The notes below the pieces were generated by a model. That model saw only the letters and a list, made by a program, of their open reading frames with translations. It did not search any database and was not told the DNA's origin. DNA of 64,000 nucleotides from assembly GCA_051362555.1 (NCBI GenBank), contig CM120642.1, positions 62,001 to 126,000 on the forward strand, written 5' to 3'. Source of the DNA: Lingula anatina. Taxonomy: Eukaryota; Animalia; Brachiopoda. The position numbers and the translations under genes were made by a program. Shown one piece after another: positions 29,338 through 63,500 of the stretch (positions within the stretch are counted from its first letter, which is position 1; each line of letters starts with the position of its first letter).

Positions 29338-31918
29338 ATGGCAGAAGGCGAAACGTCTGGACAGACTGTAGCCGTCACTCAGACAGTCACGGACACGGGG
29401 GCCAAGGTAAGAGTGGTGTTGTCAAGGGGGTTGAACTCCACAAGACGAAAGTACTCAGTACGGTACAGACGGTACAGTATGCTGAGCTTACTTATGACCC
29501 GAATTTGACGATTTTTGTGCGCATCGAAACTGGGACATTCGTCAGCTCAGCATCTGTGTTATATATTTCATTGGCAAGGTATGTTACTATTCGTTTTAAA
29601 TTTTAAGTGTAATTATGTGAAAAAGACGAAATGCTGGAGTTATTAATAAACTCAGTGTACTTTTGTCATTGGGGAGTTCACCCCAGGGCCCCTTGGATAT
29701 TTAATCTTTGTCCGGTTAATATTATACCGGTAATGCTGTATTGTACTGGGCACAATCTGTATGCATCATAATTGGAATTGACCACAGTGATTACAGCAAG
29801 ATTAAAAGAGGTGTAAGGCAAGGGGGTAATATTACCCCCCCCCCCCCCCCCCCCCACCGATCTTTTTAACATATGGAGTGATCATAAGAAAATAAACCAA
29901 TAAGAAAAATATGCTGTTCGAGGCAGGGACATCAGAAACATGAGATATGCTGATGTTAGGGCTTCCAGCACAAGATTGCAAGAGAAACCACAGGCACTAT
30001 TAAATAAATAGAGATGAAAGCAGACAAATGGGCCATTCAATAAATTGCAAGAAAACCAAATGCATAGTTTTTAGTAAGAAAAAGCAACACCCCTACCTAT
30101 GAATTGGAAGATGGCAACAATATGTGAGACAGAAATCAGTAAAAACTAAAAGAAGAATGGACAAAGCATTTGTTTCAGAAAATGTATAAGATACTCAAAG
30201 ATGGGGAAATGAAGTTGAAAAAAAATTCAGAGTGCTATTATTCTGTAGTGACCTATGACAGTGAGTGCTGGAATATATCCAATGCAACAGTAGAAAGATT
30301 GCAGGCTGTAGAAATGGGATTCATGAAGATGATGCTAAGAATAATGTGGATTGAATATATCAACAATGTTCAAATAAGTCCTAGAAAGAACTGGGAGGGA
30401 AAGAAGTTTGCTTAGAACAATAAGAAAGAGACATTTGGATTTATGGGGCTTAAAGAAATTTTCAGTTTATATGAAATATGGAATAAGATATAACTCCATG
30501 TCCTTAATAATATATCAGTGGGGGTATAGATATATCTTAATTTTTGTTAATTCTTTTGCTTAGCTTTAATATTGTGAACTGGCAGACATGGGTGGTTATA
30601 ATATATATGAGTGTTGTGTGCAATAGTTCAAGTACAAAGTATAAAAAAAAAATATTGCTTTCTTTTTACATATTTATTTATTTTATAATAGAGCCCTTCA
30701 CTGGTATTGAAGTTGAAGAAACCAAAGAATGACAAGAAAGTGAAATGGACAACAGGGACAGTGGACAATGAACATATGGGAAAGAAAAAATCCAAATGTA
30801 AGTAATAACTGCAACATAGTCAATGAACATATGGGAAAGAAAAAATCCAAATGTAAGTAATAACTGCAACATAGTCAATGAACATATGGGAAAGAAAAAG
30901 ATCCAAATGTAAGTAATAACTGCAACATAGACAATGAACATATGGGAAAGAAAAAATCCAAATGTAAGTAATAACTGCAACATAAACAATGAACATATGG
31001 GAAAGAAAAAATCCAAATGTAAGTAATAACTGCAACATAGTCAATGAACATATGGGAAAGAAAAAATACAAATGTAATTAATAACTGCAACATAAACAGT
31101 GAACACTCAGTATTTGAACAACTAACCACTGGCTTAATACAGGTCAAGAAAATTTATTTTCATCCCTTAGGACAAAAGACTCCATCACCCTATGGGCTCC
31201 TGTTAAACATTGTAGCAAACATGTTCTCTGTGTCTTAATGTGACGTCAAATGGTCTTCACCTAAACCTCTGTTAAGTCTGTGTTAAATGTTAAGCTCAAA
31301 ACTTGTTAGTCTTAATTTACCAATTCAGGTTAAATGTTTTAAACATGGCATATTTTAGTCATAATATGGATATTTATCATGGAGCTAGAACTTTAAAGAC
31401 AACACTTTGGTACTTTGCCTAGCACCATATAAAATATTTCAGTATACTACTAACAGGAATGATTTACATTCATTTTCTCATCTCCATGTTCAGGTTGTTG
31501 CATTTATGAAAAGCCAAAAATATTTGGGGAAGATTCCTCCTCTGATTCCGACTCAGACGGTGAATGTGATCATTGCAGAGGCCACACTCCAAAGGACTTC
31601 ACACAAAAAGGAGGTTAGGATTTGAAATTGTCTGCATATTGTACCATAGTCCATGCAGCTCAACCAATTAGAACAGTCTACATATATCATTTCAAAATCC
31701 ATACATCTCAGCCAATTAATTGGACCATTTTATTTAGTTACATGGAAATATGGTTTGTTTAAGAAGTATATGAAAATTCAAATAGAGAACACTGTACGAT
31801 AACAACAAAAGAAAAGTTTTAATTATTGGTCATGCTATATCATGTAGGTGTTTTCAAGTTCCCTTTTGTTATAATTATCAAAGTTTTTGCTTTGTTTTCA
31901 GACCCAGGAGACACTTAG
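29338..31918 (+). CDS. PPP1R11: Protein phosphatase 1 regulatory subunit 11 (inhibitor-3), 4 exons, ~103 aa
   Basis: Exons 29338-29406, 30692-30797, 31494-31613, 31902-31918. Spliced product [89 protein letters not shown]... contains the RVxF-type KKVKW motif, VDNEHMG and CCCIYEKP, which typify inhibitor-3. It is not visible in the ORF track. The last micro-exon is less certain. Confidence 0.92.
29920..30450 (+). mobile_element. Degenerate RTE-like LINE 3' fragment in PPP1R11 intron 1
   Basis: AGATATGCTGATG (RYAD[D] reverse transcriptase motif) and [37 protein letters not shown], resembling the RTE C-terminal motif YGCExW...RLEAFEMWCYRRMLRISW. Contains frameshifts. Confidence 0.7.
30766..31104 (+). 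repeat. 55-bp x ~6 minisatellite spanning the PPP1R11 exon 2 donor
   Basis: Unit CAATGAACATATGGGAAAGAAAAAATCCAAAT|GTAAGTAATAACTGCAACATAGT. The first copy is the true exon end. Confidence 0.92.
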
Positions 31919-35093: not shown

Positions 35094-38000
35094 ATGACCA
35101 CAAAGAGGAACATCACCAGACTGGTGAGGTACATAGAGGAGGACAGGGTACACAGGCTGAAGTCTTATGTGAAGAAACACAGTAACATAGATGTCAGCAC
35201 AATACGGCTGGACCATGACAGGACTTTGCTCCACCTGGCTTGCCTGGGGGGCCACGATGCTTGTATTAGGTACTGTAGGAATGTGTGTGTGTGTATGTGT
35301 GTGTGTGACCACAATGCCTGCATAAGTGCTATAGGGATGGGTGCGTGTGTGCGTGTGCATGCATGTGTGTGTATCTGGGAGACCAAGTTGTATTTGGTAC
35401 TGTAGATATGAATGTTTGCAATATTTTGTGTTTTAAAGAGGTGAATTAAGATATATGTGTATATATATATTGTTTAACATGCAGGTTATGTTCTCATCTT
35501 GTGAAAATGAAGTTATCAGAATCTTTTGTTTAACATGCAGGTTATGTTCTCATCTTGTGAAAATGAAGTTATCAGAATCTTTTGTTTAACATGCAGGTTA
35601 TGTTCTCATCTTGTGAAAATGAAGTTATCAGAATCTTTTGTTTAACATGCAGGTTATGGTCTCATCTTGTGAAAATGAAGTTATCAGAATCTTTTGTTTA
35701 ACATGCAGGTTATGTTCTCATCTTGTGAAAATGAAGTTATCAGAATCTTTTGTTTAACATGCAGGTTATGTTCTCATCTTGTGAAAATGAAGTTATCAGA
35801 ATCTTTTGTTTAACATGCAGGTTATGTTCTCATCTTGTGAAAATGAAGTTATCAGAATCTTTTGTTTAACATGCAGGTTATGGTCTCATCTTGTGAAAAT
35901 GAAGTTATCAGAATCTTTTGTTGCAAGGAGGAAACTACAGGGTCTAAAGAGGTAGATAGTGTTGCTTAATGAGACCATATCAATTTTCAGGTTTTTATTG
36001 AAGAAAGGGGTGGATCCCTTGCTATGTGATGCAGATGGAAACCTGGGGATTCACCTTGCTGCTATTTATGCCACAAAAACAGGGAATTCATATGGTAAGT
36101 CTAGGCATGATGATCTCACTACTGATAATCACTCTTATCATTGTTTTAGAAAGAATTAAAAAAACCTTTTTTGTTTGAAAGTATTTTGATTAACTTGTAT
36201 TGTTTAGTTTTAATAACTTGTATATTAGTTTTTAATTTATTTGTGTAGTTTTAAGTTTTAATGTACATATTTGAACAGCGCTGAGTTGCATGTGTAATGC
36301 AGTTTTAAGAAATGAATTATTTTTATTCTTATATTAATTTGCAAAGAAAAGAAAATCATAACTCAAGTATATTGACTTATTTACATTAATTAGGTTTGGT
36401 ATTCTAAACATTTCAGTGTATACAGACCTTGTACTTCCACTGATCAAGGCATGTTCACATTCACTAGATGTGGCCAACAACAGAGGCGTCACAGCCAGAG
36501 AGCTGTTAGTTGATGTGAAAACACGGCTAAGACACCATGTAACCCAGGTATAGTAGTTCATAGGCTAAGACACCATGTAACCCAGGTACAGTAGTTCATA
36601 GGCTAAGACACCATGTAACCCAGGTACAGTAGTTCATAGGCTAAGACACCATGTAACCCAGGTACAGTAGTTCATAGGCTAAGACACCATGTAGCCCAGG
36701 TACAGCAGTTCATAGGCTAAGACACCATGTAACCCAGGTACAGTAGTTCATAGGCTAAGACACCATGTAGCCCAGGTACAGCAGTTCATAGGCTAAGACA
36801 CCATGTAACCCAGGTACAGTAGTTCATAGGCTAAGACACCATGTAGCCCAGGTGCAGCAGTTCATAGGCTAAGACACCATGTAACCCAGGTGCAGCAGTT
36901 CATAGGCTAAGACACCATGTAACCCAGGTACAGCAGTTCATAGGCTAAGACACCATGTAGCCCAGGTACAGCAGTTCATAGGCTAAGACACCATGTAACC
37001 CAGGTGCAGTAGTTCATAGGCTAAGACACCATGTAGCCCAGGTGCAGCAGTTCATAGGCTAAGACACCATGTAGCCCAGGTACAGCAGTTCATAGGCTAA
37101 GACACCATGTAACCCAGGTACAGTAGTTCATAGGCTAAGACACCATGTAGCCCAGGTACAGCAGTTCATAGGCTAAGACACCATGTAACCCAGGTACAGT
37201 AGTTCATAGGCTAAGACACCATGTAGCCCAGGTGCAGCAGTTCATAGGCTAAGACACCATGTAACCCAGGTGCAGCAGTTCATAGGCTAAGACACCATGT
37301 AACCCAGGTACAGCAGTTCATAGGCTAAGACACCATGTAGCCCAGGTACAGCAGTTCATAGGCTAAGACACCATGTAACCCAGGTGCAGTAGTTCATAGG
37401 CTAAGACACCATGTAGCCCAGGTGCAGCAGTTCATAGGCTAAGACACCATGTAACCCAGGTACAGCAGTTCATAGGCTAAGACACCATGTAGCCCAGGTA
37501 CAGCAGTTCATAGGCTAAGACACCATGTAACCCAGGTGCAGTAGTTCATAGGCTAAGACACCATGTAGCCCAGGTGCAGCAGTTCATAGGCTAAGACACC
37601 ATGTAACCCAGGTACAGTAGTTCATAGGCTAAGACACCATGTAACCCAGGTACAGTAGTTCATAGGCTAAGACACCATGTAACCCAGGTACAGTAGTTCA
37701 TAGGCTAAGACACCATGTAGCCCAGGTACAGTAGTTCATAGGCTAAGACACCATGTAACCCAGGTAACGACAGAAAACATCAGATAGCTGACAATGTAAA
37801 CTTGAAAATCTGACCGTCTTCCAGAAGACCCAGAAGACGGCCTAAATCCGCCCCTGATGTAGCCCAGGTACAGCAGTTCATAGGCTAAGACACCATGTAA
37901 CCCAGGTACAGCAGTTCATAGGCTAAGACACCATGTAACCCAGGTACAGTAGTTCATAGGCTAAGACACCATGTAACCCAGGTGCAGTAGTTCATAGGCT

Positions 38001-39195
38001 AAGACACCATGTAGCCCAGGTACAGTAGTTCATAGGCTAAGACACCATGTAACCCAGGTACAGTAGTTCATAGGCTAAGACACCATGTAACCCAGGTACA
38101 GCAGTTCATAGGCTAAGACACCATGTAACCCAGGTACAGCAGTTCATAGGCTAAGACACCATGTAACCCAGGTGCAGTAGTTCATAGGCTAAGACACCAT
38201 GTAACCCAGGTACAGTAGGCTGAGATGCCTTCATAATCTTTTATATGTTGAATCATACGCTAACTGGGTCAGTAATGATCAATTTGAAAGTAATGTATTA
38301 TTAATAGGTTTTGCATACCTTGTCAGAATTATGTTAATTATAAATAAATTAATGCCCAAGACTTGTGATAATTTGACTGTTTATCAAAATGAGAGTACAA
38401 GGCAGCAAAGCTGTCAAATGTACAGACAAAAAACAGAAAATAAAGATGCAAAATAGGTCATTTTGTCAATTTTGATGCAATAATAAATAATGCTTATAAT
38501 AGCACTGTCAGTCAACACTGAATTTTAATCATGCACAACAGGTAAAATGGTCAATAACATGAGCGGACCCAGAGATATTTTCTGACAGTATTCCAAAGTA
38601 TCTATTTTGATCCATCCTCCATTTCGATGGTCTTCCAACAGAAGAAAAAATAGATACCAGGCAATATAAACTTAATAACCTGACTGTCTTCCGGAAGTCC
38701 CAGAAGATGGTCTCAATCTACCCTTTCAATAAGATTACAGTTTCAGGACCATGAGAGTTCAAATTCACATGATGTAAGTATCAATATTTGAAAAATGATG
38801 ACAGTGCATAAAATAATATTACATAAGTAACATAATGTTTAAAGACATAAAAAACAATACAACTGCTTATGTGGAAAAACAGAAATGTCAGAGTCTCAGG
38901 CGGATGAGAGTTTAAAGTCACAAATGCAAGTGTTTGAGAAAAAATTATAAAGGAAAACAACAAAACTAGAAAAGCACTCCGAGAGTGCAGACCTCTGCCA
39001 AGGTAGCAATTGTTGATTATTATTGATTTTTGTCCTCTTTGGCCCACTTCTGACAGTTCCTGAAAATTTCAGCAAAATCGGTCCATAACTTTTTGAGTTA
39101 TGTTGATGACAAACAGGGGTGAAAATATAACCTCCTTGGCAGAGGTAAATATAATTCCAATGAAGCTGTTATTCAAACTTTTAATCTTTCAGTTT

Positions 39196-39247
<52 letters not shown>

Positions 39248-40838
39248 TTATTTGCAATATTAAACAAAATTTACCTGCATAATTATCACTGCTTCCTTAT
39301 TATTAATCTAGCAGAGAGCTTAACCTATGGGAGTTTACAGGGAAATATCAACAAGTGTGCTTTATGTAATCTCAAATCACAAGTGTGCTTTATGTAGCCT
39401 ATCAATTAGGCAAATTACTTTATAACTGAAATTAGCGAAGTGATACCCAAGGGAAATTTATAGACTGACCCTCTCAAAGGTCTTTCAGGCCCATAAGTCA
39501 CAACTTAAGAAGAGCACAAAACAATAATGCACAAAATAGGAGACTACCACTTCTGATGCAATAATACATTATGTTTAACTGCACAGTCAACATCAAATTT
39601 TAATTTTGCACAACAGGTAACACCGATGAGAGTAAAAGCATAAGGCTTCAGGCCCATCAGAGTTCAAGTTTATACTTAGAAAGTGCCAGAATGAGAAAAA
39701 TGAAATTTCACACAAAATTGCATTAAATTCATTAATAAATGATAACCCAATTGACCTGGCTTTCTAATTTGAACTGCATGCCAATCCTAAAAATCATACT
39801 CTTAAGTTAAATATAATAATAAATAACACAGTTTTCTTTTCATAATGTTTGCAGTAGCAGTGCAAAAAGATTATTGTCAATTTTGATGTAACATTACATA
39901 ATAAATTATAGAATAATTATCACCAATTTTTGATTATTGACTATAAATAGCATGAACATGTAGAAAATTTGATTACCATCCGGCTTCATGTCCATGGGAG
40001 CTCCGAGTCCCACAATGAATATGCCAAAAAGATAATGAATATTTCACTAAAATGAATAACTTCCAGAAAAAGAAGCCCATTAGACTGCTTTTCCAACTTG
40101 GGCTGCATTTTAGTCCTGTGTTTCTTTTTTGAAAGTTTGACAATCATAAAGAACACGGTTTTCCCATCATGGTCATCATGGCAGATGTGGATGATTGAAT
40201 CTGACAAACTGCAATGATATGAGTTTATTTCCGTTTTGGACACTTGATTACACAATACATGATAACAAGTTTACCATCATTTTTACATAATCAACTAACA
40301 ATGTTGTAAAGATGCAGGAAATATCAAACACACACTTTTACGTATCTTATTAGTTCAATAATGAGACTGTTAACATGCCTAAGAATTGAATCTGAGGAAA
40401 TTTGAAACAAGGCAGCAAAGCTGTCAAATGTACAGACAAATAACAGAAAATAAAGATGCAAATAAGTGAAAAATTAAATTTTCACAAAAAACTGTTAAAT
40501 TGCCAGAAAAATTTACCAAACAGACTGCGTTGCCTATTGAAGCTGTATGTTAGACCCATGTTTCTTTCCTGTAAGTTTGAGAACAGTAAGTGACATGATT
40601 TCCCTTAAATGGTCATCATAGGAGCAGTGCCCAAAATAGGGGTTTCTTCAAATTTTGATGCAACATTACATAATGTTTAACAGCATAATGACAATCAAAT
40701 GTTATTAATAAAATATTAGTAACATGGACATTCAGAAAATGTGACAAGCAAAAGTCTTCAAGATCATGGAACTTTAAAGTCACACCTTGAAAATGCCAAT
40801 ATGTGAAAAATTAAATTTTCACAAAAAACTGTTTAACT

Positions 40839-40883
<45 letters not shown>

Positions 40884-42368
40884 AAAAAAAACAAACAGAC
40901 TGCATTGCCTACTGAAGCTGTATTTTAGTCCCATGTTTCTATCCTATAAGTTTGAAAACAGTAAGTGACATGATTTTCCTTAAATGGTCATCATGGAAGC
41001 AGTGCCCAAAATGGGGGTTTCTTCAAATTTTGATGCAATATTACATAATGTTTAACAGCTTAATGACCATCAATTTTTAATTATAAAATATTTGTATCAC
41101 AGATATTCAGAAAATGTGACTAGCAAAGGTCTTCAGGCCCATGGAACTTCAAAGTCACGCCTTGATAATGCCAAAATGTAAACAAGACAGCACTGTTCTG
41201 AAATGGGTTTATTTCCATTTTTAACACTTTTTTAAGTAAAAAAAAATACACATTTTACTGCCATTTTTATATGTCCAACTAAGAAAATTGATGAGATGGG
41301 AAAAGTATCAATAGAACAGTGTTAAATGTCCAATTTCCTCCATTCTGAGATTCTGAACATAGTGGATGATTGAATCTGACAAACTGCAATGATATGAGTT
41401 TATTTCCATTTTTGACACTTTATTACACAATACATGATAACAAGTTTACCATGTTTTTTACATAATCAACTAACAATATTGTAAAGATGCAGGAAATATC
41501 AAACAAACACTTTTAGGCATCTTATTAGTTAAATAATGAGACTGTTAACATGCCTAATAATTGAATCTGAGGAAATGTGAAAAAACAGTATAACTTCTTA
41601 AGTAATGGCCCGATTATGCTTATTTTCGAACTCAACCTGCATTTTAGTAAGATTGACCACTCCTGTGAGTATAATTACAATTGGCCAATCCGTTTTTCTT
41701 ATATTGTGTTATCAGTGTTGCATTTATATTGAAAATAGTGAAAAAACTGCATAAATTACCTAAAAGTGACCCGATCATGCTGATTTTCGAACTTGACCTG
41801 CGTATTATGAATATTCATCAGTTCTGTAAGTTTCAAGTCAAAAGGTAAAATGGTTTTCCACTTATCGTGTTATCGGTTCTGCATATATGCTGAAAAAAGT
41901 GAAAAAACAGCATAAATTCCCTAAAAGTGACCCGATCATGCTGATTTTCGAACTTGACCTGCGTATTATGAATATTCATCAGTTCTGTAAGTTTCAAGTC
42001 AAAAGGTAAAATGGTTTTCCACTTATCGTGTTATCGGTGCTGCATACATGCTGAAAAAAGTGAAAAAACAGCATAAATTCCCTAAAAGTAACCCGATCAT
42101 GCTGATTTTCGAACTTGACCTGCGTATTATGAATATTCATCAGTTCTGTAAGTTTCAAGCCAAAAGGTAAAATGGTTTTCCACTTATCGTGTTATCGGTG
42201 CTGCATATATGCTGAAAAAAGTGAAAAAACAGCATAAATTCCCTAAAAATGACCCGATCATGCTGATTTTCGAACTTGACCTGCGTATTATGAATATTCA
42301 TCAGTTCTGCAAGTTTCAAGTCAAAAGGTAAAATGGTTTTCCACTTATCGTGTTATCGGTAAAAGTGC

Positions 42369-42399
<31 letters not shown>

Positions 42400-48578: not shown

Positions 48579-51500
48579 TTACTGTTTCCATGGTAACCAA
48601 CTGGCAACAGAATTTATATGATTATCTGGTTTTGGACAGGAAGGAGGTAGCTGACATTGGTCTTCTCTTTGCTTCTTTTTCTTCCTAAGTGTTACTTTAT
48701 TGTTGCCTTGGTTACTGTTGTTATGGTTACTGTTGTAATGGCCATTCATCTTTCCAGTTACCATAGGTCCAATGTTTTCAATGCTGTTTGTATGTTGGTC
48801 AGATAGAGGAAAACCATTCACTGTTGGAGACTTGTCCATCTTTGGAAAACTTTGACTAGATTGATGGGAACTAAAGGCCTCCTCCCCCTGGACTAGACTG
48901 CCATTCATGACACCTGCAAACAGAAGTCCAGCACTGGTGACATCTTCATGGACTGCTTCATCATTGTGAACTGACGGACTTATAAGGAGCTGGGACGACA
49001 ACTTGGACGCTTTCTCTTGAGACTTTCGCTTCCTCACCTTTTTCTTCTTCTTGGCATCTGGTGGAGCCTGTGAAGATAAAGGCGCAATAAACACATCAAA
49101 CAGTTTGAGATCTTTTTGAAGTTTTTTGAAATGCAAACAGATACTACAAGATAAATTTAATACAGTGTTTATGATTTTTATCAAATCATACACAGTGGTA
49201 TACACAGTCTTCATCTTCATATCACAAACACTGTATGTATGGAGAAAAGACACCCAAAGCAGTATTAAAGATTTTATTCTAGGTTTCCGAGTTTGACACT
49301 GAAATACTTACCCTCAGTGGAGAATCTGTGATAAGAGGCAGTGACGGCTGAATGACGGTCAAATCTGGATCTGAACCTGCAATAAACCAAGGGAATCAGC
49401 ACATATTAAGTAAATCTAAGACAGGTACTGATGAGTCTTTCGATCCACCACTAAATGTTCTGTCTCTGGTGGTTTACTGATAACAAAGATTAGAGACTAT
49501 ATGACTCACTGTAAGAACCGACCAATCATCTTCTCTGCTGTGACTCTGTACGTACAGACATACTGTGGCTTGCAACAACCTATTAAAATCATTTTCAGTT
49601 CTTACCAGAAAGTCTCTCAGTAAGGATTGGCTCTGGACTTTCTAGGAATGCACTCTCATCAACAGAAAGACGCCGGGCTGGAATGTTGGGGCGATGGCTC
49701 TTCACCTGTACAGATAAACACTGTTTTACTTCATACCCCATAAGTTTTGGTGCAAGATAAATTTGTATCCATTTTTTTCAGTTCGCTGTGTATTCACTAC
49801 TGTCTTTATAAAAAGGAAAAACAAATTTATTGACTCAACAAAGACAAATGTTAAGAAATTGCTGTTCAATACATCAAAATGAATTTAAGGTTTCACTGGG
49901 TCTATATGTGATACTGCATGAAGAACAGCACTTCGTTATGTGACTGTAATATTTGGCTACAACATGAGAGAAGTGTATCACATTATGTGACTGGTCACCT
50001 ACCTCATTTAGAAACTTCTCCAGTATATCACATGAGACTGGTCACCTACCTCATTTAGCAACTTCTCCAGCATACCACATCGTGCGACTGGTCACCTACC
50101 TCATTAAGTAACTTCTCCAGTATATCACATTATGTGACTGGTCACCTACCTCATTAAGTAACTTCTCCAGTATATCACATTATGTGACTGGTCACCTACC
50201 TCATTAAGTAACTTTTCCAGTATATCACATTATGAGACTGGTCACCTACCTCATTAAGTAACTTCTCCAGTATATCACATTATGAGACTGGTCACCTACC
50301 TCATTAAGTAACTTCTCCAGTATATCACATTATGTGACTGGTCACCTACCTCATTAAGTAACTTCTCCAGTATATCACATTATGTGACTGGTCACCTACC
50401 TCATTAAGTAACTTCTCCAGTATATCACATTATGTGACTGGTCACCTACCTCATTAAGTAACTTCTCCAGTATATCACATTATGTGACTGGTCACCTACC
50501 TCATTAAGTAACTTCTCCAGTATATCACATTATGTGACTGGTCACCTACCTCATTAAGTAACTTCTCCAGTATATCACATTATGAGACTGGTCACCTTCC
50601 TCATTAAGTAACTTCTCCAGTATATCACATTATGAGACTGGTCACCTACCTCATTAAGCAACTTCTCCAGTATATCACATTATGAGACTGGTAACCTACC
50701 TCATTAAGTAACTTCTCCAGTATATCACATTATGAGACTGGTAACCTACCTCATTAAGTAACTTCTCCAGCATACCACATCGTGCGACTGGTAACCTACC
50801 TCATTAAGTAACTTCTCCAGCATACCACATCGTGCGACTGGTAACCTACCTCATTAAGTAACTTCTCCAGCTCAATCTTGGAAGGACTGGGAGGACGTCT
50901 GCTCAAACACCACAACAACACCGCTATCAGCACCATGGCCTGGACAGCTAGCACCACCAGGTGGAACTCCACTGCCTGGAAGTATTGACAGCATTAACTG
51001 GAGTGTAACTCTGCAGACTAATGTGGAATACCATCCCAGTTTGTAGAGAACAGCATCAGTGACATTACATTTGGAAGAGGAAATTGATTTTATGATAACA
51101 AATTATAACTTTACACCACACATTTGACAAAACTAGCCTACCCCAGCATAACACAACAGTAGGAATGTATCACATACCCCAGCATAACACAACAGTAGGA
51201 ATGTATCACATACCCCATCATAACACAGCAGTAGGAATGTATCACATACCCCAGCATAACACAACAGTAGGAATGTATCACATTATCACTGCTGGCAATA
51301 AGCCAATCCATCAGATGTATTATCCTACACTATCCTCACTACAAACTTCATTACTGTATCATTCATCAGACAACATAATCTGTGGTCTACAAACACAATC
51401 ACATTCAGCAGACTACATTTTCTGTGTCCTCACCTTTATCTGCATCTGCTTCATGTCGTCTGCCATGGCTACCATGGTGTAAGTCAGATTCTCCAATCTC

Positions 51501-54500
51501 TGCTGCAGACTAGCTATAGTGGCTTGTTGAACCAAGTCCTGAAATATTCACATGAATGTTATTTACTTTGTCACAATATCTCATTGCATCGCTACACTTT
51601 AAACAAGGCAGAACTATTTAAAGTCTTGAAGTCATGTAAACAGGCTACTTCTCTTTATCACAAACAAATTATAACTGCTTCAATCATTCAGAGCTATCAG
51701 CAGGATTGTGAGCTTACCCTATCCTCAGCATCTTGTGCTGTTTTCCTCAAACTGGTGATGGTTTTATTGAAAGCTTTTTGCATGTCTTCATTCTTCTTCT
51801 TGAAACTTTGACTTAATTCCTCTAAATACCTGCAACAAAGAGATGAGAGGCAAATCACCATTGCGAGTGAACAGCACATATTCTGATATCAATGTGACTG
51901 CTGAAGTAAATCATTGACAACACATAAATAATGCCTAATACTTTGATTAAATAGTTTATCTTTATTAGGTAATACCCAATGATGTCTGGTACTTTCATAA
52001 AATAACTTTACTTAAGTAATATAATTGTAACTAGTGTTTTATGCCTACCTGCTGCTAAGGGATATATTCAGCTCCAGAGCTTTCATCTTATTATTCAACC
52101 TCATCATAGCTGTCTCCTTCTTGATGTTTCCCACAGCAATTATTTTATCCTCATCAGGCATCATATCATGTTTACCTGTCTCAGTCTTGTTCTGGGCATA
52201 AAACTCTTTCTCTTTACTGCCATTCACTTGGGCCTGTATTGGCTCAGTGGTGCCATCTATAGGTTCAGTCACTGGCACTTGTGTGATGGCTTCCTGTGAA
52301 GCTGGACTGTCTTGTGTGCAAGGTTCTAAAAACACAGATTCTGATGCTGATGATGACAGAGAACTCTCATCTTTTTCCCCTGCTGTATTGGATTGTAGAG
52401 GTGGAGGATGAAGTTGATCCGTAGGCTCTACTGCCTTGCTGCTGACTGTTTTCAAAGATGACTGAAGCGTTTCACTAGTCTGCTTTGAAGTGTTCCCAGT
52501 TGCTGCCTGTTGGTGTGTTTTATCTCTGGACTCCTCTATTTCTGTTCTTACTTCTCCAGTGGTGGGTGTGGTTTGTAGTCCAGGGTCTGTGCCAGTGCTA
52601 GACATGTCAGTTTTTATACTCAACTTCTGTGTTGATTCTTTAAACTCCCTGTGTATGCTGGTGGAGCTGGGGTCACTCTGGCTAGGAGCTATACTTCCTG
52701 TGGAACCCGCTGAGTTCAGAGCTGTGCTACTGCTCACCACAACTGTCATGGAGGTGGGTGTGGTCTGGATGACTGACATCTCAGTGACTGACTTTGATAC
52801 TTCACTGGAGGTGGAGCTTGTTCCATCTTTTACTATGTGGGTGGAGCTTGACTTGAGGGCAGAGGTTGGTCTATGGGCGGAGTCAGTCCCACTGACACCT
52901 GTCCCCTGTGTGATTGGCAGTCTGTCACTACATGACATGGGGTGCATACAGCTACCTGTCAGGGCTATAAAATAGCCACAAGTTCCTGATGTCACCTGAG
53001 TTTGATGACTGGTTTTGTCACATACACTACACTCAGATAACAACGACTGCAGGAAACTCTTACGTTTTGACTTCCAAGGTTTACTTCCAGGGCTTGAAGT
53101 GGTTTCTGAGACCTCAGATGGGGTATCTAAACCAAGTTCAGGCCGAACAACAGGTCTGAAATGAATAATAATAATATTAAGTGGTTCATAACATATGCAG
53201 GTTTCTCCTACTGATTATTTGATTAAATATTTTGTAGCTTTGAAGAGTGATCAAACTTATTATTTAAGACAGAAGTCTTTACATAAGACATTTATCAAAT
53301 AAATGTAATGTCAAATGCTGAAGTGTATTTGCCTGGAAACAGCAATAAAACTACGTCTAGTCTAAGACAGTCTTGTTGTCAAAGTGACAGGAGTGTTTTA
53401 ACAGTGTACTTACTTGTCATCAGGAAAACAAGGTTTGGGAACAGCTTCCACAGGTGGCGCCTCTGTACTGCTAGTGCCATTGGTTGCATTACCTACAGAG
53501 ACAAAAGTGACATATTTATATCATGCTGTATTCCAAGAATTTGAACACAGGCTCATAGGGCAATGCCTTAATTGTTTTTTTGTTCATTCATAACAAAATA
53601 ACACAACTCAACTTTAACGAAATCTAAATAAAAATTGCCAATTCTCTTGTAACAGTAATGACTACATGAACAGGTGGCGGTGGAGAAACATTCCCACTGA
53701 AATTAACATTAATTTAGTTGCCAAAACTGACCCAGTAACTATCACACTCACCTGCAGCATCAGCGGTATCACTGTTTACTGTCAACACTGTCTTTACAAT
53801 ACTTAACACTGTATCTGGAAAAAAAAAGATGTACTGTGAGTTTCAGCAGCAAGAGAGATAATGAAGCAAGAAACTAGTCAAACTACTCTTCATATAACCT
53901 AGCTTTTAACTCACCTTTTACCACATCATTTGTCAAAATGGGGAACCTGTGTATTTTCTTCACTTAAAAGAATGGAGAACCAACACAGGGGCGTAACCAG
54001 ACCTTTAAAAATTGTACGCACAGCTTTTTAAAATTCCCAGCAAAATGTAGACTAACGCAACAGATGAAGGACAGCGTAATCACAGCATTTGTACCACACA
54101 TCGCAGCTTAATTTCCATTAATAATAAAATCATCATTTAGTCAGAAATATTCTCGCAATTAAAAAAGTTTCAATATTCTTATTACCCAGAACGGTATTTA
54201 TTTATTTAAAAGGAGGCTAGCTTCGCATATGTGGAACCCCCTTCGAACTAGAGGATCAGAGAGGCGATACCGCCTCCAAATATTGTACCACCAGCTGGAG
54301 CAAGCGCATTCGTATAGACCCCCACATACACAAAATAAGGGACACAGCCACCAGTTTTGTGCTTGACAAGCTGTAAAAATGCAATCAACAAGAATTTTTA
54401 AACTATTGCAAAAAATATATATGGTACAATCAAATTTAAGTTCTTCGTAAGGTAGGTCAAGGGTCAATTTCAAGGTCACAGTAAATTGCCAGTATATGAC

Positions 54501-57500
54501 TTCCTATTCAAGTTCAAGAGTAACTATGGACCTATCTCTGTCAAGTTTGAAGTTAAAAGAGAAAGAAATTAGCAGAGTTCAGTTCATGATAATAAGTAGG
54601 TCGAACGTCATTTTCAAGGTCACACTTAGATTGCCAGTATAGGACTTCCTATTCAACTTCAATAGTAACTATGGACCTATCTCAGCCAGTTTTGGAGATA
54701 AAAGGGAAGCAAAATTTGCAAAATTCAGTTCATGGTGAAAAGTAGGTCAAAGGTCAATTTCAAGGTCACATTTAGATTGCCAGTATATGACTTTCTATTC
54801 AAGTTCAATAGTAACTATGGACCTATCTCTGCCAGTTTTGGAGATAAAAGGGAAGCAAAATTAGCAGAGTTCAGTTCATGATAATAAGTAGGTCAAACGT
54901 CATTTTCAAGGTCACACTTAGATTGCCAGTATAGGACTTCCTATTCAACTTCAATAGTAACTATGGACCTATCTCAGCCAGTTTTGGAGATAAAAGGGAA
55001 GCAAAATTTGCAAAATTCAGTTCATGGTGAAAAGTAGGTCAAAGGTCAATTTCAAGGTCACATTTAGATTGCCAGTATATGACTTTCTATTCAAGTTCAA
55101 TAGTAACTATGGACCTATCTCTGCCAGTTTTGGAGATAAAAGGGAAGCAAAATTTGCAAAGTTCAGTTTATGGTGAAAAGTAGGACAAAGGTCAATTTTA
55201 ATGTCACATTTATAATGCCAGTATATGACTTCCTATTCAAGTTCAATAGTAACTATGGACCTATCTCTGCCAGTTTTGGAGATAAAAGGGAAGCAAATTT
55301 TGCAAAGTTCAGTTTATGGTGAAAAGTAGGTCAAAGGTCAATTTTAAGGTCACATTTAGATTGCCAGTATATGACTTCCTATTCAAGTTCAATAGTAACT
55401 ACGGACCTATCTCTGCCAGTTTTGGAGATAAAAGGAAAGCAAAATTTGCAAAATTCAGTTCATGGTGTAAAGTAGGTCAAAGGTCAATTTTAAGGTCACA
55501 TTTAGATTGCCAGTATATGACTTCCTATTCAAGTTCAATAGTAACTATGGACCTATCTCTGCCAGTTTTGGAGATAAAAGGGAAGAAAAATTTGCAAAGT
55601 TCAGTTTATGGTGAAAAGTAGGTCAAAGGTCAATTTCAAGGTCATAGTAAGATTGCCAGTATATGACTTCCTATTCAACTTCAATAGTAACTATGGACCT
55701 ATCTCTGCCAGTTTTGGAGATATAAGGGACTAGATGTTATAATTTTGGAATTACCATAATGTGCCTTAAATTTCGTACAGAAAAAATTAATTAAAATAAA
55801 GAAAATGTCATTTTGGTCAAAATTCTTGAAATAGGAGGTGCTCTGAAGTTTCAGAAGTTCAAATTTGATGAAATAATGTCATTTTTGAACACAAGTTGTC
55901 TGCTTTGCCAAGCCTTATGTTTTATTTTTCCAGAGTTCAAAATTTATTATCCATTACCGTACTGCATATTTTGCTCTTACCACCAATATGTACTTTTTGA
56001 TAGAGTGTAACTCGAAAACCGTATGGAATACAAAAAAACCGAGACCACCTCCAGTGTTGGGCTTTACATGCTCTACAAAATGCAAAAAAGAATGGGTCTC
56101 TAGCATTAACGGTTCCCGAATTAGAAACAGTTTTAAGTTTCGGTATCTTATGGCCGCTACTCCCGTGAAAATGCACCGATTGACCCCAAATTCATGGAGA
56201 TGAAACATGACCTGAAGGGTAACACTTTCCAATAATATTATTGGTTAAGTCTGTGTGGTGTCTGAATAACAGGGCAAAAAAATTTTTTTTCGTAAAAAAT
56301 TTCATTTTTTTGAAAATTTTGGCCCATTTGACCTTGAAGTAGAGGTCAAAGGTCAAATCCAAGGGTATATTTGAAATCTACACCTATGACTTTTGGAAAG
56401 CCGTCTATAGAAATTTTTCCCATAACTCCTTCCGTAGGGTAGATAATTAGCATTTAATTTTGCCATTTTTAGACAAGGGTGCATTGCAATGAGTGCCACA
56501 CCCAGACCCCAATACCGACAAAGCCCAAATTTTACGTGGAATGAGTTGAGATTATAGGTGACCTAAATCCATGAGATGGGTACGGGGGCCCTTACCATCT
56601 AGGAGGATAAGCGGTAACGGTAGCCGTCCGGCGGAGCCAGCGGAGCCGGCGGAGCCGGCGGAACGATCCGGACGGGACCGAAACCATGTGCACCGCCAGC
56701 GTTAACGCTGGTGGTACAATAATCCTGGATCCACCTCTGAGTTGAACTAACATACGGTTTCATTCACCTTACATGTGGATGCATGGCTCCCCAAAACATC
56801 CAATTGTACGACACGACAGAGCTCTGATACATCCAAGTTTAATTATTTGTTTGTAAAAATTGCCCATGTCACCCTGTTAGTTTGGAGGGGTAAGCTTGGT
56901 CAAGTCCGTGTCAAAATTCTTTGAAGCTTTGCAGGAAAAATTCTTCCTTTGTTTCTCTAGCTCCTTATTAAACCTGGTGTCCAGATTTTATCTAGTGCCC
57001 CCAGGGTTGCGGGAGCTGCTCCTTGAAAATAACACTCAGGCAGATTTTTACCTGAGATAAACATCGCCAGCGAGAATGCGTTCGATATTCTCAAGAAAGA
57101 GGCTGCAAGAGAGTTGAGGGCCAGTGAACCCTCCAATTAAGAGGTAAAGGAAGTTCCAGTTAGATGGACGATTAAGATGGGACTTGTTAAGGTTACAGGC
57201 ATTGTTTACCTCAATTCAATAAAAGTATGTAAGGGGGGGGGGTCAGAACAATTGTGCCTATACAATTGATACAGAGGATTTGTACATACAGGTGACTTTA
57301 ATAAGCAGAGGATTTTCTTTTATATTTCGTGAAAAATACACTTTATTTATATAAAATAATATCATAGTTGGCCAAAAAATTGTACGCACAGTGCATCCGT
57401 ACGTATGCCTAGTTATGCCCATGCCAACAGATTACATATTTTCACCACTTGGTAAAATGGGGAACCAATAAAAGTATTCAGTGAAAGTATTTTCTCTGGT

Positions 57501-60500
57501 TATTACCTTTAGCTGTATTAAACAAGTTCACGGATCCTGTATCCTCTGCAGTGCTGCCATCTTCAGGGCTTTGGTCATCTTCACCATCATCATCAAGGTC
57601 ATTCATGTTCCAACCAAATACCCTGAAACATGGTGGGGACACCTAAATAAATTCAATCTTTTCACTGTGTCAATGTAAGATACTTGACACCTATGACACC
57701 TACTTCTCAATAGCCTATCACCACAATTACCTCTACATATCACAGATTATTTCAATTGCATTTCAAAAACAGCTAGGTCACCATACACATATTAAAACCT
57801 GGCAAAATGGGTATGCCTGTATTTTGGGGTCACCATACACATATTAAAACCTGGCACATGGGTATGCCTGTATTTTGGGGTCACCATAGACATATTAAAA
57901 CCTGGCACATGGGTATGCCTGTATTTTGGGGTCACCATACACATATTAAAACCTGGCACATGGGTATGCCTGTATTTCCAAAATTAAAGTGTTTTTTTTT
58001 TCTTACATTTTAATGGTCAAATAAGATGATGCAAGAGTATTAAGTTAACTAGACAGCAAAGCTGGCCTGTAACACAAAAAAACATTTCCCATTGCTTCAT
58101 ATTAACATTAAGCAGTACACTCCAATTAACAATAATTTTGAATGAAATTGCTCACAGAGCAAGGACTTGTGAATTATATAATATAATTTATACTTCTTGT
58201 GTGAAAACAAAGGAATAAGAGAGTGCTGGAAACTTGAGTTTTAACATAACATTTAATCCTGAATCCAGCTGTGTTGTTTAATCAAGTGGCTAATGGTTTA
58301 CACCAACAGATTACTAAAGGGCTTTCTGACAGTGTAATCAATTTTACTGTGTAGCATTTCAATAAAATAAGAGTTCAAAATTGTAAGATATCACCAAACT
58401 GAATCTAGTTTCTGATCCTCATGAAAATCAAAGCAGTTCACCCTAGGTCTTTTATCAATCTACAAAACAATGAGGCAAAAATCTCTAAGATTGTGGCCAC
58501 TACTGCCGACCCAAAAAATGGTACTGCAGACAAACTCACAAAAGCACAAACAAACAAGCAGACAATTAGACCAGCAAAAGTTTTTTCACAAGTAAAATGA
58601 TTGATTTTACTAATATTGGAAAGGTTCCTTCCTGTATACCAAATATAGCCACTCAATAAATTTAAGTAATTTAAAACAAAAATATGATTTGGCAGTTTTT
58701 AGGCTGAACAACAGATGTTTTGGACAGTAACACAGTGATACAGACAGACATATTATTCAGAATATATGAGGACACAAAATGTACATAAAATGAGGTCTTC
58801 ACGTTAACACTACCTGAGAATGCTGACTGGGCAATAGTGTTCTTTACCATAATATGATATATATAAATGACACAAAGTGTCTGTATATAAAATGAGGTCT
58901 TCATGTTAACACTACCTGAGAATGCTGACTGGGCAATAGTGTTCTTTACCATAATATGATATATATAAATGACACAAAGTGTCTGTATATAAAATGAGGT
59001 CTTCATGTTAACACTACCTGAGAATGCTGACTGGGCAATAGTGTTCTTTACCATAATATGATATATATAAATGACACAAAGTGTCTGTATATAAAATGAG
59101 GTCTTCACGTTAACACTACCTGAGAATGCTGACTGGGCAATAGTGTTCTTTACCATAATATGATATATATAAATGACACAAAGTGTCTGTATATAAAATG
59201 AGGTCTTCATGTTAACACTACCTGAGAATGCTGACTGGGCAATAGTGTTCTTTACCATAATATGATATATATAAATGACACAAAGTGTCTGTATATAAAA
59301 TGAGGTCTTCACGTTAACACTACCTGAGAATGCTGACTGGGCAATAGTGTTCTTTACCATAATATGATATATATAAATGACACAAAGTGTCTGTATATAA
59401 AATGAGGTCTTCATGTTAACACTACCTGAGAATGCTGACTGGGCAATAGTGTTCTTTACCATAGTGGGTCAGCATTTCAAACTGAAACAATGATGAAAAA
59501 GTTGAAACCATTAAAAACTGTGCTTCAAAGACAAAGCACATATTCTAGTCAACACTGACAACTATCTGCATATTGTGCATCTATTTGTCTTCAGTTTAAC
59601 TTAGGTAAACAGAAGGCAGCATTGTAAATGATGGCAACAGTAGTATGTACACTGCAAGATATTAGATGACAGTTTCTCTTTAGAAAGGAGCACTTGTACA
59701 TGTTAATTCCTATTTGTCTGACAATTAAGTTAAGTTGCAATATAACTATTCTAAAAAAGCCACATGGTAAAAAGGTAGTAAGAATGCATATCCCATGATG
59801 TGCCACTTACCTTGACATATTTGGCATAGGTCTGACCATCTACATGAAAGCTCTGTACATCTCTCTCCTCCCTGGCGTGGAACAACCCCAGCAACTGCCA
59901 GTCTTTAGTGGGATACCTGTAACCAGATCACAGATATTGTTGAATACAATATGTGCCAGTCTTTAGTGGGATACCTGTAACCAGATCACAGATATTGTTG
60001 AATACATTATGTGCCAGTCTTTAGTAGGATACCTGTAACTAGATCACAGATATTGTTGAATACAATATGTGCCAGTCTTTAGTGGGATACCTGTAACCAG
60101 ATCACAGATTGAATACAATATGTGCCAGTCTTTAGTGGGATACCTGTAACCAGATCACAGATTGAATACAATATGTGCCAGTCTTTAGTGGGATACCTGT
60201 AACCAGATCACAGATATTGTTGAATACAATATGTGCCAGTCTTTAGTGGGATACCTGTAACCAGATGACAGATTGAATACAATATGTGCCAGTCTTTAGT
60301 GGGATACCTGTAACCAGATCACAGATATTGTTGAATACAATATGTGCCAGTCTTTAGTGGGATACCTGTTACCAGATCACAGATATTGTTGAATACAATA
60401 TGTGCCAGTCTTTAGTGGGATACCTGTAACCAGATCACAGATATTGTTGAATACAATATGTGCCAGTCTTTAGTGGGATACCTGTAACCAGATCACAGAT

Positions 60501-63500
60501 ATTGTTGAATACATTATGTGCCAGTCTTTAGTGGGATACCTGTAACCAGACCAAAGATTGAATACAATATGTGCCAGGCTTTAGTGGGATACCTGTAACC
60601 AGATCACAGATATTGCTGAATACAATATGTGCCAGTCTTTAGTGGGATACCTGTAACCAGATCACAGATATTGTTGAATACAATATGTGCCAGTCTTTAG
60701 TGGGATACCTGTAACCAGATCACAGATATTGTTGAATACATTATGTGCCAGTCTTTAGTGGGATACCTGTAACCAGACCAAAGATTGAATACAATATGTG
60801 CCAGTCTTTAGTGGGATACCTGTAACCAGATCACAGATATTGTTGAATACAATATGTGCCAGTCTTTAGTGGGATACCTGTAACCAGATCACAGATATTG
60901 TTGAATACAATATGTGCCTATTTGCAGCACATTTAAAATAACGACAAAAAGCTCACTAAATACAAAAATAAAACTACTCATTGCCACAATGGCTTAGGCT
61001 ACTGGGCTAGCTGCACAAGAGGCTGGTGTAACTGCTCACCTTTCTGCCACATAAGCTTTGAAAGTCTCCGGCACAGAGGAGAAGAGCTCAAAGTTGGCAA
61101 TCTCTAGAGTCCTCACTTGAATGGGCTCACACAGTTCCACCACAAACCTGGAACAGAACAGGAAACAGAACATAATGGGTAATTTCTTCAGCTTCTACAA
61201 CTCTCAGCATTGTATAAAAGATACCCTTGACAATTACATATCTAATATTAAAAAATGTCTTCATGCATTCTACATGTGAATGGACACTTTCAGTCCAGTT
61301 AAAACCAGTTTCAGGAAATAAGGAGCACACCTTAAACCCACAATTATTTGCTGTCACTAAGGTTAATGACATACTCACCATTTCTTGATGTTGCAAGGGT
61401 TAATCACGTACTCACCATTTCTTGATGTTACAAGGGTTAATCATATATTCATCTTTGTTCTCAGTGAGGACAGACAGGGTATCTCTAGCTTCAGGGTTGT
61501 GAGCCACCAGCTTGGCACCACAGGACTTGGAGGCATAGTTGATGTTGGGTTTCTTCACTGACTTGGTGTTGCCGTTGGTGTGGGGGAGCACCTGCTGGTC
61601 TACAGTGATTTTACAAGTAAATAACTTTGCATTAAAGTTGGTGTGGGGGAGCACCTGCTGGTCTACAGTGATTTTACAAGTAAATAACTTTGTATTAAAG
61701 TTGGTGTGGGGGAGCACCTGCTGGTCTACAGTGATTTTACAAGTAAATAACTTTGTATTAAAGTTGGTGTGGGGGAGCACCTGCTGGTCTACAGTGATTT
61801 TACAAGTAAATAACTTTGCATTAAAGTTGGTGTGGGGGAGCACCTGCTGGTCTACAGTGATTTTACAAGTAAATAACTTTGTATTAAAGTTGGTGTGGGG
61901 GAGCACCTGCTGGTCTACAGTGATTTTACAAGTAAATAACTTTGTATTAAAGTTGGTGTGGGGGAGCACCTGCTGGTCTACAGTGATTTTACAAGTAAAT
62001 AACTTTGTATTAAAGTTGGTGTGGGGGAGCACCTGCTGGTCTACAGTGATTTTACAAGTAAATAACTTTGTATTAAAGTTGGTGTGGGGGAGCACCTGCT
62101 GGTCTACAGTGATTTTACAAGTAAATAACTTTGTATTAAAGTTGGTGTGGGGGAGCACCTGCTGGTCTACAGTGACTTTACAAGTAAATAACTTTGTATT
62201 AAAGTTGGTGTGGGGGAGCACCTGCTGGTCTACAGTGATTTTACAAGTAAATAACTTTGTATTAAAGTTGGTGTGGGGGAGCACCTGCTGGTCTACAGTG
62301 ATTTTACAAGTAAATAACTTTGTATTAAAGTTGGTGTGGGGGAGCACCTGCTGGTCTACAGTGATTTTACAAGTAAATAACTTTGTATTAAAGTTGGTGT
62401 GGGGGAGCACCTGCTGGTCTACAGTGATTTTACAAGTAAATAACTTTGTATTAAAGTTGGTGTGGGGGAGCACCTGCTGGTCTACAGTGATTTTACAAGT
62501 AAATAACTTTGTATTAAAGTTGGTGTGGGGGAGCACCTGCTGGTCTACAGTGATTTTACAAGTAAATAACTTTGTATTAAAGTTGGTGTGGGGGAGCACC
62601 TGCTGGTCTACAGTGATTTTACAAGTAAATAACTTTGTATTAAAGTTGGTGTGGGGGAGCACCTGCTGGTCTACAGTGATTTTACAAGTAAATAACTTTG
62701 TATTAAAGTTGGTGTGGGGGAGCACCTGCTGGTCTACAGTGACTTTACAAGTAAATAACTTTGTATTAAAGTTGGTGTGGGGGAGCACCTGCTGGTCTAC
62801 AGTGATTTTACAAGTAAATAACTTTGTATTAAAGTTGGTGTGGGGGAGCACCTGCTGGTCTACAGTGATTTTACAAGTAAATAACTTTGTATTAAAGTTG
62901 GTGTGGGGGAGCACCTGCTGGTCTACAGTGATTTTACAAGTAAATAACTTTGTATTAAAGTTGGTGTGGGGGAGCACCTGCTGGTCGATCTACAGTGATT
63001 TTACAAGTAAATAACTCTGGGTTGTATATTCATCAAATATGTGTCATTTCTCAGACAGGGTACTGGTATGGCAGAAAGGTCAGAACATTTGATAGACTTC
63101 TTTAATGACATTTCTTACAGTCTTCAATAAAACGTTGTTCCTTACCAGCTAACACCAACAGGCTGTAATGTATCCCCAGTCAATACTCTACTAAAACAAT
63201 GCAATCAACGTTAACCTTTTTCTCAACTACATCAACTGTATAAAACAGCCACACAGCAAGGCATAACTTACCATCTTGTTTTTTCTTCTGTTCCTCTGCC
63301 AGCTTCTGCTGTGCCCAGGCATCAAAGGGGAGGATCTCTTTGTCTGAGGAAGGCACTATGGGCTCATCATCTCTGCTGACAGGGGGCACAACCGTCTTCT
63401 GCTCCTCTGTTGGCCCAACTTTTGAGGAAGGTTCAGTTTTATCAACTTGGACAGAATCTGGGGTCTTCTTGATATGACCATCACCTGGTGGTGTTACGCC

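Follow-up and report, generated by a model that had tools for sequence, protein, structure and literature searches.

Tandem repeats spanning exon–intron borders in three adjacent genes of the brachiopod Lingula anatina

Why should tandem repeats lie across the exon–intron borders of three adjacent genes, and which of the repeated splice sites is used? In this study, we addressed these questions in a 64,000-nucleotide stretch of the Lingula anatina genome (the window; contig CM120642.1, positions 62,001 to 126,000). The reading that we favour, and hold to be fairly probable, is that seven separate minisatellites, each spanning a real splice site and each therefore a 'mirage', arose by local duplication, grew and are tolerated through splicing at the proximal site. 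The arrays are likely to be harmless.

The arrays and their host genes

Three coding spans carry the arrays and a fourth serves for comparison:

29338..31918, plus strand: PPP1R11 (inhibitor-3) coding span; exons 29338-29406, 30692-30797, 31494-31613 and 31902-31918, with an open joined frame.
35094..46053, plus strand: NFKBIL1 coding span; exons 35094-35269, 35991-36094, 36417-36547, 45058-45154 and 45491-46053.
48579..63768, minus strand: SUCO (SUN-domain ossification factor; PF07738); the window contains 15 exons but not the 5' end.
21019..25594, plus strand: CCN-family gene, for comparison; IGFBP, VWC, TSP1_CCN and Cys_knot matches in an open frame of 381 codons.

Joined together, the 15 SUCO exons form a single open frame that is identical to protein P0001 at 1096 of 1103 residues, the five NFKBIL1 exons are identical to protein P0002 at 352 of 356 residues, and the PPP1R11 exons flanking the donor at 30797 (exons 2 and 3) match PF07491 at positions 1-36 and 37-57. 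The protein hits point to Lingula anatina as the organism. Compared with the joined SUCO and NFKBIL1 exons, P0001 and P0002 contain no repeat-derived insertion. By these exon models and their protein or domain matches, the repeat unit spans a genuine exon–intron border in all seven arrays, two of which also have RNA backing:

30764..31105, plus strand: PPP1R11 donor array, 55-bp unit (about 33 nt exon and 22 nt intron), 6 junction copies; genuine donor after 30797; 32 exon nt common to the adjacent copy.
36525..38218, plus strand: NFKBIL1 donor array, 38-bp unit (23 nt exon and 15 nt intron), 42-43 junction copies; genuine donor after 36547; 23 exon nt in common.
49972..50870, minus strand: SUCO donor array, 50-bp unit (21-22 nt exon and 28-29 nt intron), 18 copies; genuine donor between 50850 and 50849; 22 exon nt in common.
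58780..59463, minus strand: SUCO donor array, 102-bp unit (38 nt exon and 64 nt intron), 7 junction copies; genuine donor between 59426 and 59425; 38 exon nt in common.
59896..60918, minus strand: SUCO acceptor array, 58-bp unit (37 nt intron and 21 nt exon), 18 copies; genuine acceptor at 59916; 21 exon nt in common.
61361..61451, minus strand: SUCO donor duplication, 37-bp unit, 2 junction copies; genuine donor between 61416 and 61415; 14 exon nt in common exactly, about 27 allowing one mismatch.
61574..63020, minus strand: SUCO acceptor array, 63-bp unit (37 nt intron and 26 nt exon), 22-23 copies; genuine acceptor at 61599; 26 exon nt in common.
35259..35415, plus strand: candidate eighth, decayed case; NFKBIL1 donor 35269 with one degenerate 17/18-nt copy 127 bp downstream (35269/35396).

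The seven arrays are head-to-tail tandem repeats with periods of 37-102 bp and 88-99% matches, and TRF recovered each of them at the position and with the period given in a preliminary description of this DNA; its call for the 63-bp array ends at 63016. That description had placed them at seven of about 48 splice sites, which we confirm as seven among 49 coding sites with exon models that match proteins, and had held that the units share no sequence; the seven consensus units indeed differ by inspection. It had also presented as peculiar that the exon-proximal copy is the genuine junction and all extra copies are intronic. The geometry is present, but it is not a separate oddity, since any tolerated duplication across a junction needs it. 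The GT or AG is intact in 109 of about 110 extra junction copies over the seven arrays. The 38-bp array is broken by a 90-bp insertion at 37767-37856; in the 58-bp array five of the 18 copies are 53-bp variants and every copy reads AG|GT; the 63-bp unit preserves the reading frame and contains no stop, staying open over 442 codons. A transposon-derived repeat family was considered and rejected, because every unit reproduces a junction of the gene that hosts it and the consensus units are unlike one another.

When the 49 coding splice sites were scanned for nearby junction copies, two weaker matches appeared beside the seven array sites. The score of the decayed copy at 35269/35396 was reached by about 2 of 2000 shuffles, and this copy was left out of the enrichment statistics; the distant match at 51433/49037 was taken as chance.

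Junction arrays compared with chance

The window holds more junction arrays than chance would place there, as had been claimed, and it does so under each of seven nulls, although the estimate is post hoc, the window having been chosen for this very pattern. Seven arrays were observed against 1.3-3.0 expected, a 2.4- to 5.4-fold excess (P 0.0002-0.01). The expectations were 1.3 (P=1.7e-4), 1.7 (5e-4), 2.4 (3e-3), 2.6 (5e-3) and 2.9 (0.01), and 2.6-3.0 when computed per intron (0.004-0.009). These nulls are generous in that a 1-nt overlap counts as a junction and harmful placements are kept in. The excess persists after allowing for short introns (median 294 bp once arrays are collapsed) and for the purging of exon-internal repeats; short introns alone lower it to about 2.4-fold without abolishing it. 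Purged exon-internal duplications and short introns would together account for about 2.4-3.0 of the seven cases, and such a neutral filter falls short of explaining all seven arrays. The remaining excess is likely to reflect partly a genuine but modest bias towards junctions and partly the selection of the window for its pattern. The further statement that junction arrays make up about half of the non-TE minisatellites depends on the count: it fails for periods of at least 20 (7 of 23) and holds for arrays of at least 4 copies (6 of 12) and for those inside coding spans (7 of 14).

According to one alternative, short tandem duplications arise preferentially at the borders of transcribed genes and then expand, still as tolerated passengers, with breaks or nicks tied to co-transcriptional splicing, R-loops or exon nucleosome edges as putative causes. 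We consider this rather unlikely, although the excess itself speaks in its favour, as do the possible eighth case at 35269 and the several amphioxus genes that bear such structures in the available text of PMC3087553 and PMC3902484. The junctions also lie near the centres of the units, the exon fraction being 0.36-0.73, and are more central than uniform placement predicts (P 0.004-0.03, with post hoc thresholds; P 0.11-0.21 when 10 nt are granted for microhomology). Against this it has to be considered that a single window was chosen: the L. anatina genome of 329.3 Mb (PMC13121700) divides into about 5,100 such windows, of which about 1-50 should reach P values of 0.0002-0.01 by chance. AG|GT proto-splice sites show no preference, with 4 of 7 array junctions vs 18 of 42 other sites (P=0.69), and array ends at junctions resemble those of other arrays; a crude script, which missed cases visible by eye, found no difference in microhomology between the two, and similarities of 4-10 nt can be seen at the ends of four junction arrays and equally in non-junction arrays. 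Weak splice sites were considered as a cause: donors at junction arrays match the consensus at 6-8 of 9 positions vs 5-9 of 9 for other donors, and the two junction acceptors have rather low pyrimidine fractions of 0.53 and 0.60 (range 0.53-0.87; n=2). The absence of arrays from CCN junctions, to which attention had been drawn, is real in that none of the six sites is duplicated, but as a contrast it is expected by chance (P=0.38); the comparison of housekeeping or germline genes with CCN is thus uninformative, and the CCN gene was the sole basis for a link to such genes. That a splicing-linked bias acts genome-wide, with duplications born or kept preferentially at borders in Lingula and perhaps in other repeat-rich marine invertebrates, seems to us conceivable but doubtful.

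Copy choice in RNA and the nature of the arrays

The spliced copy was sought in raw short-read RNA runs labelled Lingula anatina, about 6-25% of each run being read. At PPP1R11, 44 of 130 placed reads join the first donor at 30797 to exon 3 at 31494 (7, 11 and 26 reads in three runs from three studies). There was no read-through past the first donor, the depth over 30800-30819 being 0 in all three runs, which sets a 95% upper bound of 6.6%. Use of a distal donor in this gene would give an immediate stop, so that poly(A) reads under-count it. RNA is thinner at SUCO (10 and 8 reads in two runs), where six of the 10 reads placed in run X14 pass from the upstream exon to the exon-proximal acceptor at 61599 and continue into unique exon sequence; in the intron part of the 63-bp array the depth over 61606-61660 is 0 in both runs. 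Here decay cannot mask the use of distal acceptors, since the unit is free of stops over its open 442 codons. At both junctions, therefore, the proximal copy is spliced and the mRNA is unaltered, low-level distal use being possible. At the other five, among them the 61416 donor, which no RNA read covered, the protein matches suggest that the proximal copy is likewise chosen.

These data also bear on the idea that the extra copies are decoys that tune splicing or expression, whether as sponges for U1 or U2AF, through recursive splicing via AG|GT, or by adding an in-frame 21-residue insertion to SUCO. The nearly complete retention of GT or AG would accord with such a role, as would the AG|GT of the 58-bp copies, the 63-bp unit, in which the reading frame stays open through 21 copies, and the nearby pseudo-sites used in human 6-16 and CBS (PMC1557585, available portion). 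Two sense-strand reads of X14 fall within the 58-bp array; unspliced RNA and distal-acceptor use are indistinguishable as their source. However, intact dinucleotides are expected anyway in arrays whose units are 88-99% identical, no read-through occurred at the PPP1R11 donor in 44 junction reads, the intron part of the 63-bp array had no RNA depth, the two reference proteins lack repeat insertions, and one DNA run differs several-fold from another in array depth. We regard a function of this kind as quite improbable.

Four of the arrays (55-, 58-, 37- and 63-bp) were found in independent DNA runs, and three of these arrays show head-to-tail joints or increased depth together with flanks that agree. 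Run X2 contains a head-to-tail junction of the 55-bp array and, for the 63-bp array, a joint that goes back 63 bp and a depth of 1201 vs about 75 in the flank; in run X3 the latter array has a depth of about 300 vs 50, and the two runs agree on its intron-distal flank. The 58-bp array and its 53-bp variant were also seen in DNA runs, and one X3 contig spans the 37-bp duplication without a gap. As regards length polymorphism between individuals, the ratio of array to flank depth differs among X2, X3 and the copy counts in the window, though contig depth is not copy number. An assembly artefact, which the preliminary description had named as a way in which it might fail, is thereby refuted for the four read-checked arrays; for the set as a whole, artefact or wrong exon models are scarcely credible given the variant units, the 90-bp insertion and the 99% match to named proteins, even though the check covered four of seven arrays and no long read was seen across a whole array.

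We therefore return to local duplication followed by growth and tolerance. Each array probably began as an ordinary tandem duplication of 37-102 bp across an exon–intron border, presumably between short direct repeats, and then probably expanded and turned over as a VNTR by slippage or unequal exchange; such turnover is suggested by the 88-99% unit identity, the variant blocks, the diverged end copies and the depth that differs between DNA runs. The arrays are probably tolerated because the spliceosome takes the exon-proximal copy, as seen at two sites, and so leaves the mRNA unchanged, a choice that probably stems from exon definition or from upstream-first selection of the 5' site as in human F7. 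To judge from the sequence, use of an extra copy would cause a frameshift or stop in six of the seven arrays, and nonsense-mediated decay may serve there as a back-up filter.

Relation to known junction repeats

The Lingula arrays belong to a known type of repeat, the 'mirage' of lancelets, with human junction VNTRs as further examples. The earlier reading had overlooked both this name and a prior study of proximal choice among identical copies in human F7. Amphioxus mirages are described for Adh3, where somatic instability has been reported, troponin C, the globins BflGb6 and BflGb9, and PGBD5 (PMC3087553, PMC3902484, in the parts available). In these accounts, as in Lingula, tandem units lie over a 5' or 3' border, with both donor and acceptor cases, end copies have diverged from interior ones, and splicing is normal, in Lingula at the two sites with RNA reads; copy number varies in amphioxus and may do so in Lingula. 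Unit sizes overlap (10-160 bp in amphioxus, 37-102 bp in Lingula). The Lingula arrays differ in belonging to Brachiopoda, in occurring in three adjacent genes, at 7 of the 49 coding splice sites and with up to 43 copies, and in including one in-frame, stop-free acceptor array; an enrichment estimate, as made here, is absent from these portions of the amphioxus literature.

Human junction VNTRs, as presented in the available part of PMC1557585, include F7 IVS7 (37 bp), CBS IVS13, 6-16 intron 2, LAMIN B2 and PDGF intron 4. As in the Lingula donor arrays, the first unit spans the donor and has identical pseudo-sites behind it, and in F7, LAMIN B2 and PDGF splicing takes place at the site furthest upstream. 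All the human cases listed there are donors at isolated, scattered loci, whereas Lingula has two acceptor arrays, and an F7 unit carries 4 exon bases vs 21-38 in Lingula. Our literature search found no report of junction-spanning repeats in brachiopods and no genome-wide test for junction enrichment of tandem repeats. The portion of PMC6905558 available does not describe the abalone minisatellite as junction-spanning, and the main text of the 2026 Lingula genome paper does not mention tandem repeats, satellites, splicing or introns, though its supplementary repeat tables might bear on the question.

PPP1R11 and SUCO supply two clean instances, found in nature, of a proximal splice site being chosen. 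In the SUCO acceptor array nonsense-mediated decay cannot conceal errors, and with its 23 copies, in frame and stop-free, this array would lend itself to assaying, independently of decay, how a 3' splice site is selected from identical candidates. Gene prediction and short-read assembly can also go wrong at such arrays. Should the 2.4- to 5.4-fold excess hold throughout the genome, repeat birth or survival would be coupled to splice sites, which would bear on the origin of introns and of alternative splice sites, and mirages would be a general process giving a steady supply of new splice sites. This touches on the Rogers model of intron gain through tandem duplication of splice signals (described in PMC3087553) and on human segmental duplications with internal tandem repeats at exon–intron borders (PMC2812944), as far as the available text of either goes. 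Like these systems, the Lingula arrays contain duplicated splice signals able to seed introns or exons; unlike them, the joined Lingula exons match named proteins without insertions and show no new intron or exon. The Lingula arrays extend this junction-repeat oddity, known from lancelets and humans, to a brachiopod.

Tandem arrays at seven splice sites

Seven minisatellites have repeat units that span a genuine splice junction. Each was recovered by Tandem Repeats Finder at the position and period assigned to it in the preliminary description, which was a good account of a real feature:

30797, PPP1R11 donor: 55-bp unit, 6 junction copies
36547, NFKBIL1 donor: 38-bp unit, 42-43 junction copies
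50850, SUCO donor, minus strand: 50-bp unit, 18 junction copies
59426, SUCO donor, minus strand: 102-bp unit, 7 junction copies
61416, SUCO donor, minus strand: 37-bp unit, 2 junction copies
59916, SUCO acceptor, minus strand: 58-bp unit, 18 junction copies
61599, SUCO acceptor, minus strand: 63-bp unit, 22-23 junction copies

A scan of each of the 49 coding splice sites of PPP1R11, NFKBIL1, SUCO and CCN for nearby junction copies returned these arrays and two minor matches. One is a single decayed copy that follows the NFKBIL1 donor at 35269 by 127 bp; the other, a distant match, was taken as chance. Units carry 21-38 nt of exon, and the intron share is 37 nt in both acceptor units. The GT or AG is intact in 109 of approximately 110 extra copies, and terminal copies are often truncated or diverged. 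Read from the sequence, use of an extra copy would cause a frameshift or stop in six of the seven arrays; the 63-bp SUCO acceptor unit is in frame and stop-free across 442 codons. In four junction arrays the beginning of the array shows short similarities to its end, and non-junction arrays likewise have them. The 38-bp NFKBIL1 array is split by a 90-bp insertion (37767-37856, within 37753-37870) with a 14-nt near-identical direct repeat on both sides. Of the inserted sequence, 82 nt resemble another part of this intron, 38643-38724 (score 93 versus a shuffle maximum of 34); the arrangement suggests that a small mobile element or a repair event inserted here and left a target-site duplication.

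Mapping the named L. anatina proteins onto the window gave 15 SUCO exons (1096 of 1103 residues identical) and five NFKBIL1 exons (352/356). One SUCO exon matches the L. anatina SUN domain-containing ossification factor at 100%, and the last NFKBIL1 exon matches its L. anatina protein at 98%. The two PPP1R11 exons flanking 30797 cover positions 1-36 and 37-57 of Pfam PF07491, and the comparison gene CCN (21019-25594) is backed by four domains and an open frame. PPP1R11 and NFKBIL1 adjoin within 29338-46053, with SUCO at 48579-64000. In human, the first two lie in the MHC region and SUCO lies at 1q24, in an MHC paralogon, so the stretch may be a piece of the ancestral proto-MHC linkage group.

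Other repeats were also noted. In NFKBIL1 intron 1, a 56-bp x 8 array (35470-35922) has an acceptor-like AG in every unit and stops 68 nt short of the true acceptor at 35991, of which its units are not copies; the array is a possible sign of an alternative exon that is not annotated. Within 9597-17600, a 7.1-kb satellite of 50-bp units adjoins a dispersed element, whose end the unit resembles by inspection and which recurs in NFKBIL1 intron 3 (41000-44950) at 70-76% identity with internal 161-162-bp arrays. A 60-bp x 12 array (46466-47188) lies between the convergent NFKBIL1 and SUCO 3' ends. The SUCO intron 53815-57506 is filled by an insertion-like block of about 3 kb (54250-57400) with a 146-bp x 9 array; the block has no second copy in the window and was handled as transposon-derived by assumption.

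Splice-site use

RNA evidence on site choice, from runs with the same species label, covers two of the seven junctions, PPP1R11 30797 and SUCO 61599, and at both the exon-proximal copy is used. The stretches compared with RNA reads contain one further junction, the 61416 donor, over which no read was found. Among 130 reads over PPP1R11 30600-30880, drawn from three studies with one RNA run each, 44 (7, 11 and 26) splice from the first donor to exon 3, five have two possible placements, and none of the runs has any read depth over 30800-30819. At 95% confidence read-through does not exceed 6.6%, although decay could mask distal use here because an immediate stop would follow. At SUCO 61599, six of ten reads from RNA run X14 connect the preceding exon with the proximal acceptor and extend into unique exon sequence, and 61606-61660 has no depth in either RNA run; since the 63-bp unit is stop-free, these reads provide a decay-independent test, in a small sample. 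Two sense-strand X14 reads lie inside the 58-bp acceptor array (60850-60914) and contain a 53-bp variant unit. They reflect either unspliced RNA or distal acceptor use, and count against strictly proximal splicing.

Excess over random placement and possible origins

For the null model each array was reduced to a single unit, and positions lying entirely within coding exons were left out as purged. Window-wide, seven of 23 non-transposon arrays (period at least 20) span a junction, where 1.3 are expected (P=1.7e-4). The excess persists within coding spans (7/14, expected 1.7, P=5e-4), after removal of two transposon-like blocks (7/12 versus 2.4, P=3e-3), with CCN also left out (7/11 versus 2.6, P=5e-3), and on shuffling per gene (expected 2.9, P=0.01) or per intron (expected 2.6-3.0, P=0.004-0.009). 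With arrays collapsed, introns have a median length of 294 bp, so their shortness accounts for part of the pattern and not all of it. These P values are post hoc and come from a single window; the genome, put at 329.3 Mb in PMC13121700, holds about 5,100 such windows, of which roughly 1 to 50 are expected to yield values this low by chance. CCN does lack junction arrays, as originally remarked, but chance suffices to explain this (P=0.38). The junction is central in the unit at P 0.004-0.03, or 0.11-0.21 once microhomology is allowed for, and AG|GT context is not enriched at the junction arrays.

Most likely, ordinary local duplications chanced to cross splice sites, grew as VNTRs after the initial duplication and were tolerated, an account in which we infer birth, growth and neutrality. 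Tolerance would follow from splicing of the exon-proximal copy, with duplications inside exons removed; the position of the extra copies in the intron, pointed out in the preliminary description, is a consequence of this account. That splicing biases where repeats are born or survive across the whole genome is rather unlikely. The main rival, that repeat birth is targeted to splice junctions, draws on the residual excess over the nulls in a single window, and we regard it as unlikely. A regulatory role of the arrays found little support and is very improbable.

Independent DNA runs and known border-spanning repeats

Contigs of DNA runs X2 and X3, which come from different studies, were compared with the window over 60850-61660. 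At the 63-bp array, X2 has a joint that steps back 63 bases, with a depth of 1201 there and about 75 in flanking sequence; the figures for X3 are about 300 and 50, contig depth not being equal to copy number. X2 and X3 share the intron-distal flank of the window. Depth over the 58-bp array is raised in both runs, and X3 contains the 53-bp variant. The 37-bp duplication is contained in a single X3 contig, which has two copies like the window. Over this duplication (61354-61437) X2 depth is 208-387 versus about 73, which, while not a copy count, suggests more copies in X2 than in the window. The head-to-tail junction and distal flank of the 55-bp PPP1R11 array are both in X2, which represents another individual, since many positions differ from the window. 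The check covers these four of the seven arrays, and their presence in independent runs leaves little support for an assembly artefact, which is extremely improbable.

In the largely open-access literature searched, we found neither a report of junction arrays in Lingula or brachiopods nor a genome-wide enrichment test of such arrays. The Lingula arrays nevertheless belong to an already known type of repeat. According to PMC3087553 and PMC3902484, tandem repeats spanning exon-intron borders in amphioxus are termed 'mirages'; they occur at either border in Adh3, troponin C, two globins and PGBD5, are unstable in length, are compatible with normal splicing and have been proposed as a route of intron gain. 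In human, PMC1557585 describes donor-spanning minisatellites in F7, CBS, 6-16, LAMIN B2 and PDGF, with upstream-first site choice in F7 experiments, and PMC2812944 describes duplications with repeats at exon-intron borders. Of the six listed features of mirages, the Lingula arrays share four: head-to-tail arrays of minisatellite size, units across a true border, retained splice signals and, at the two sites with RNA evidence, normal splicing.
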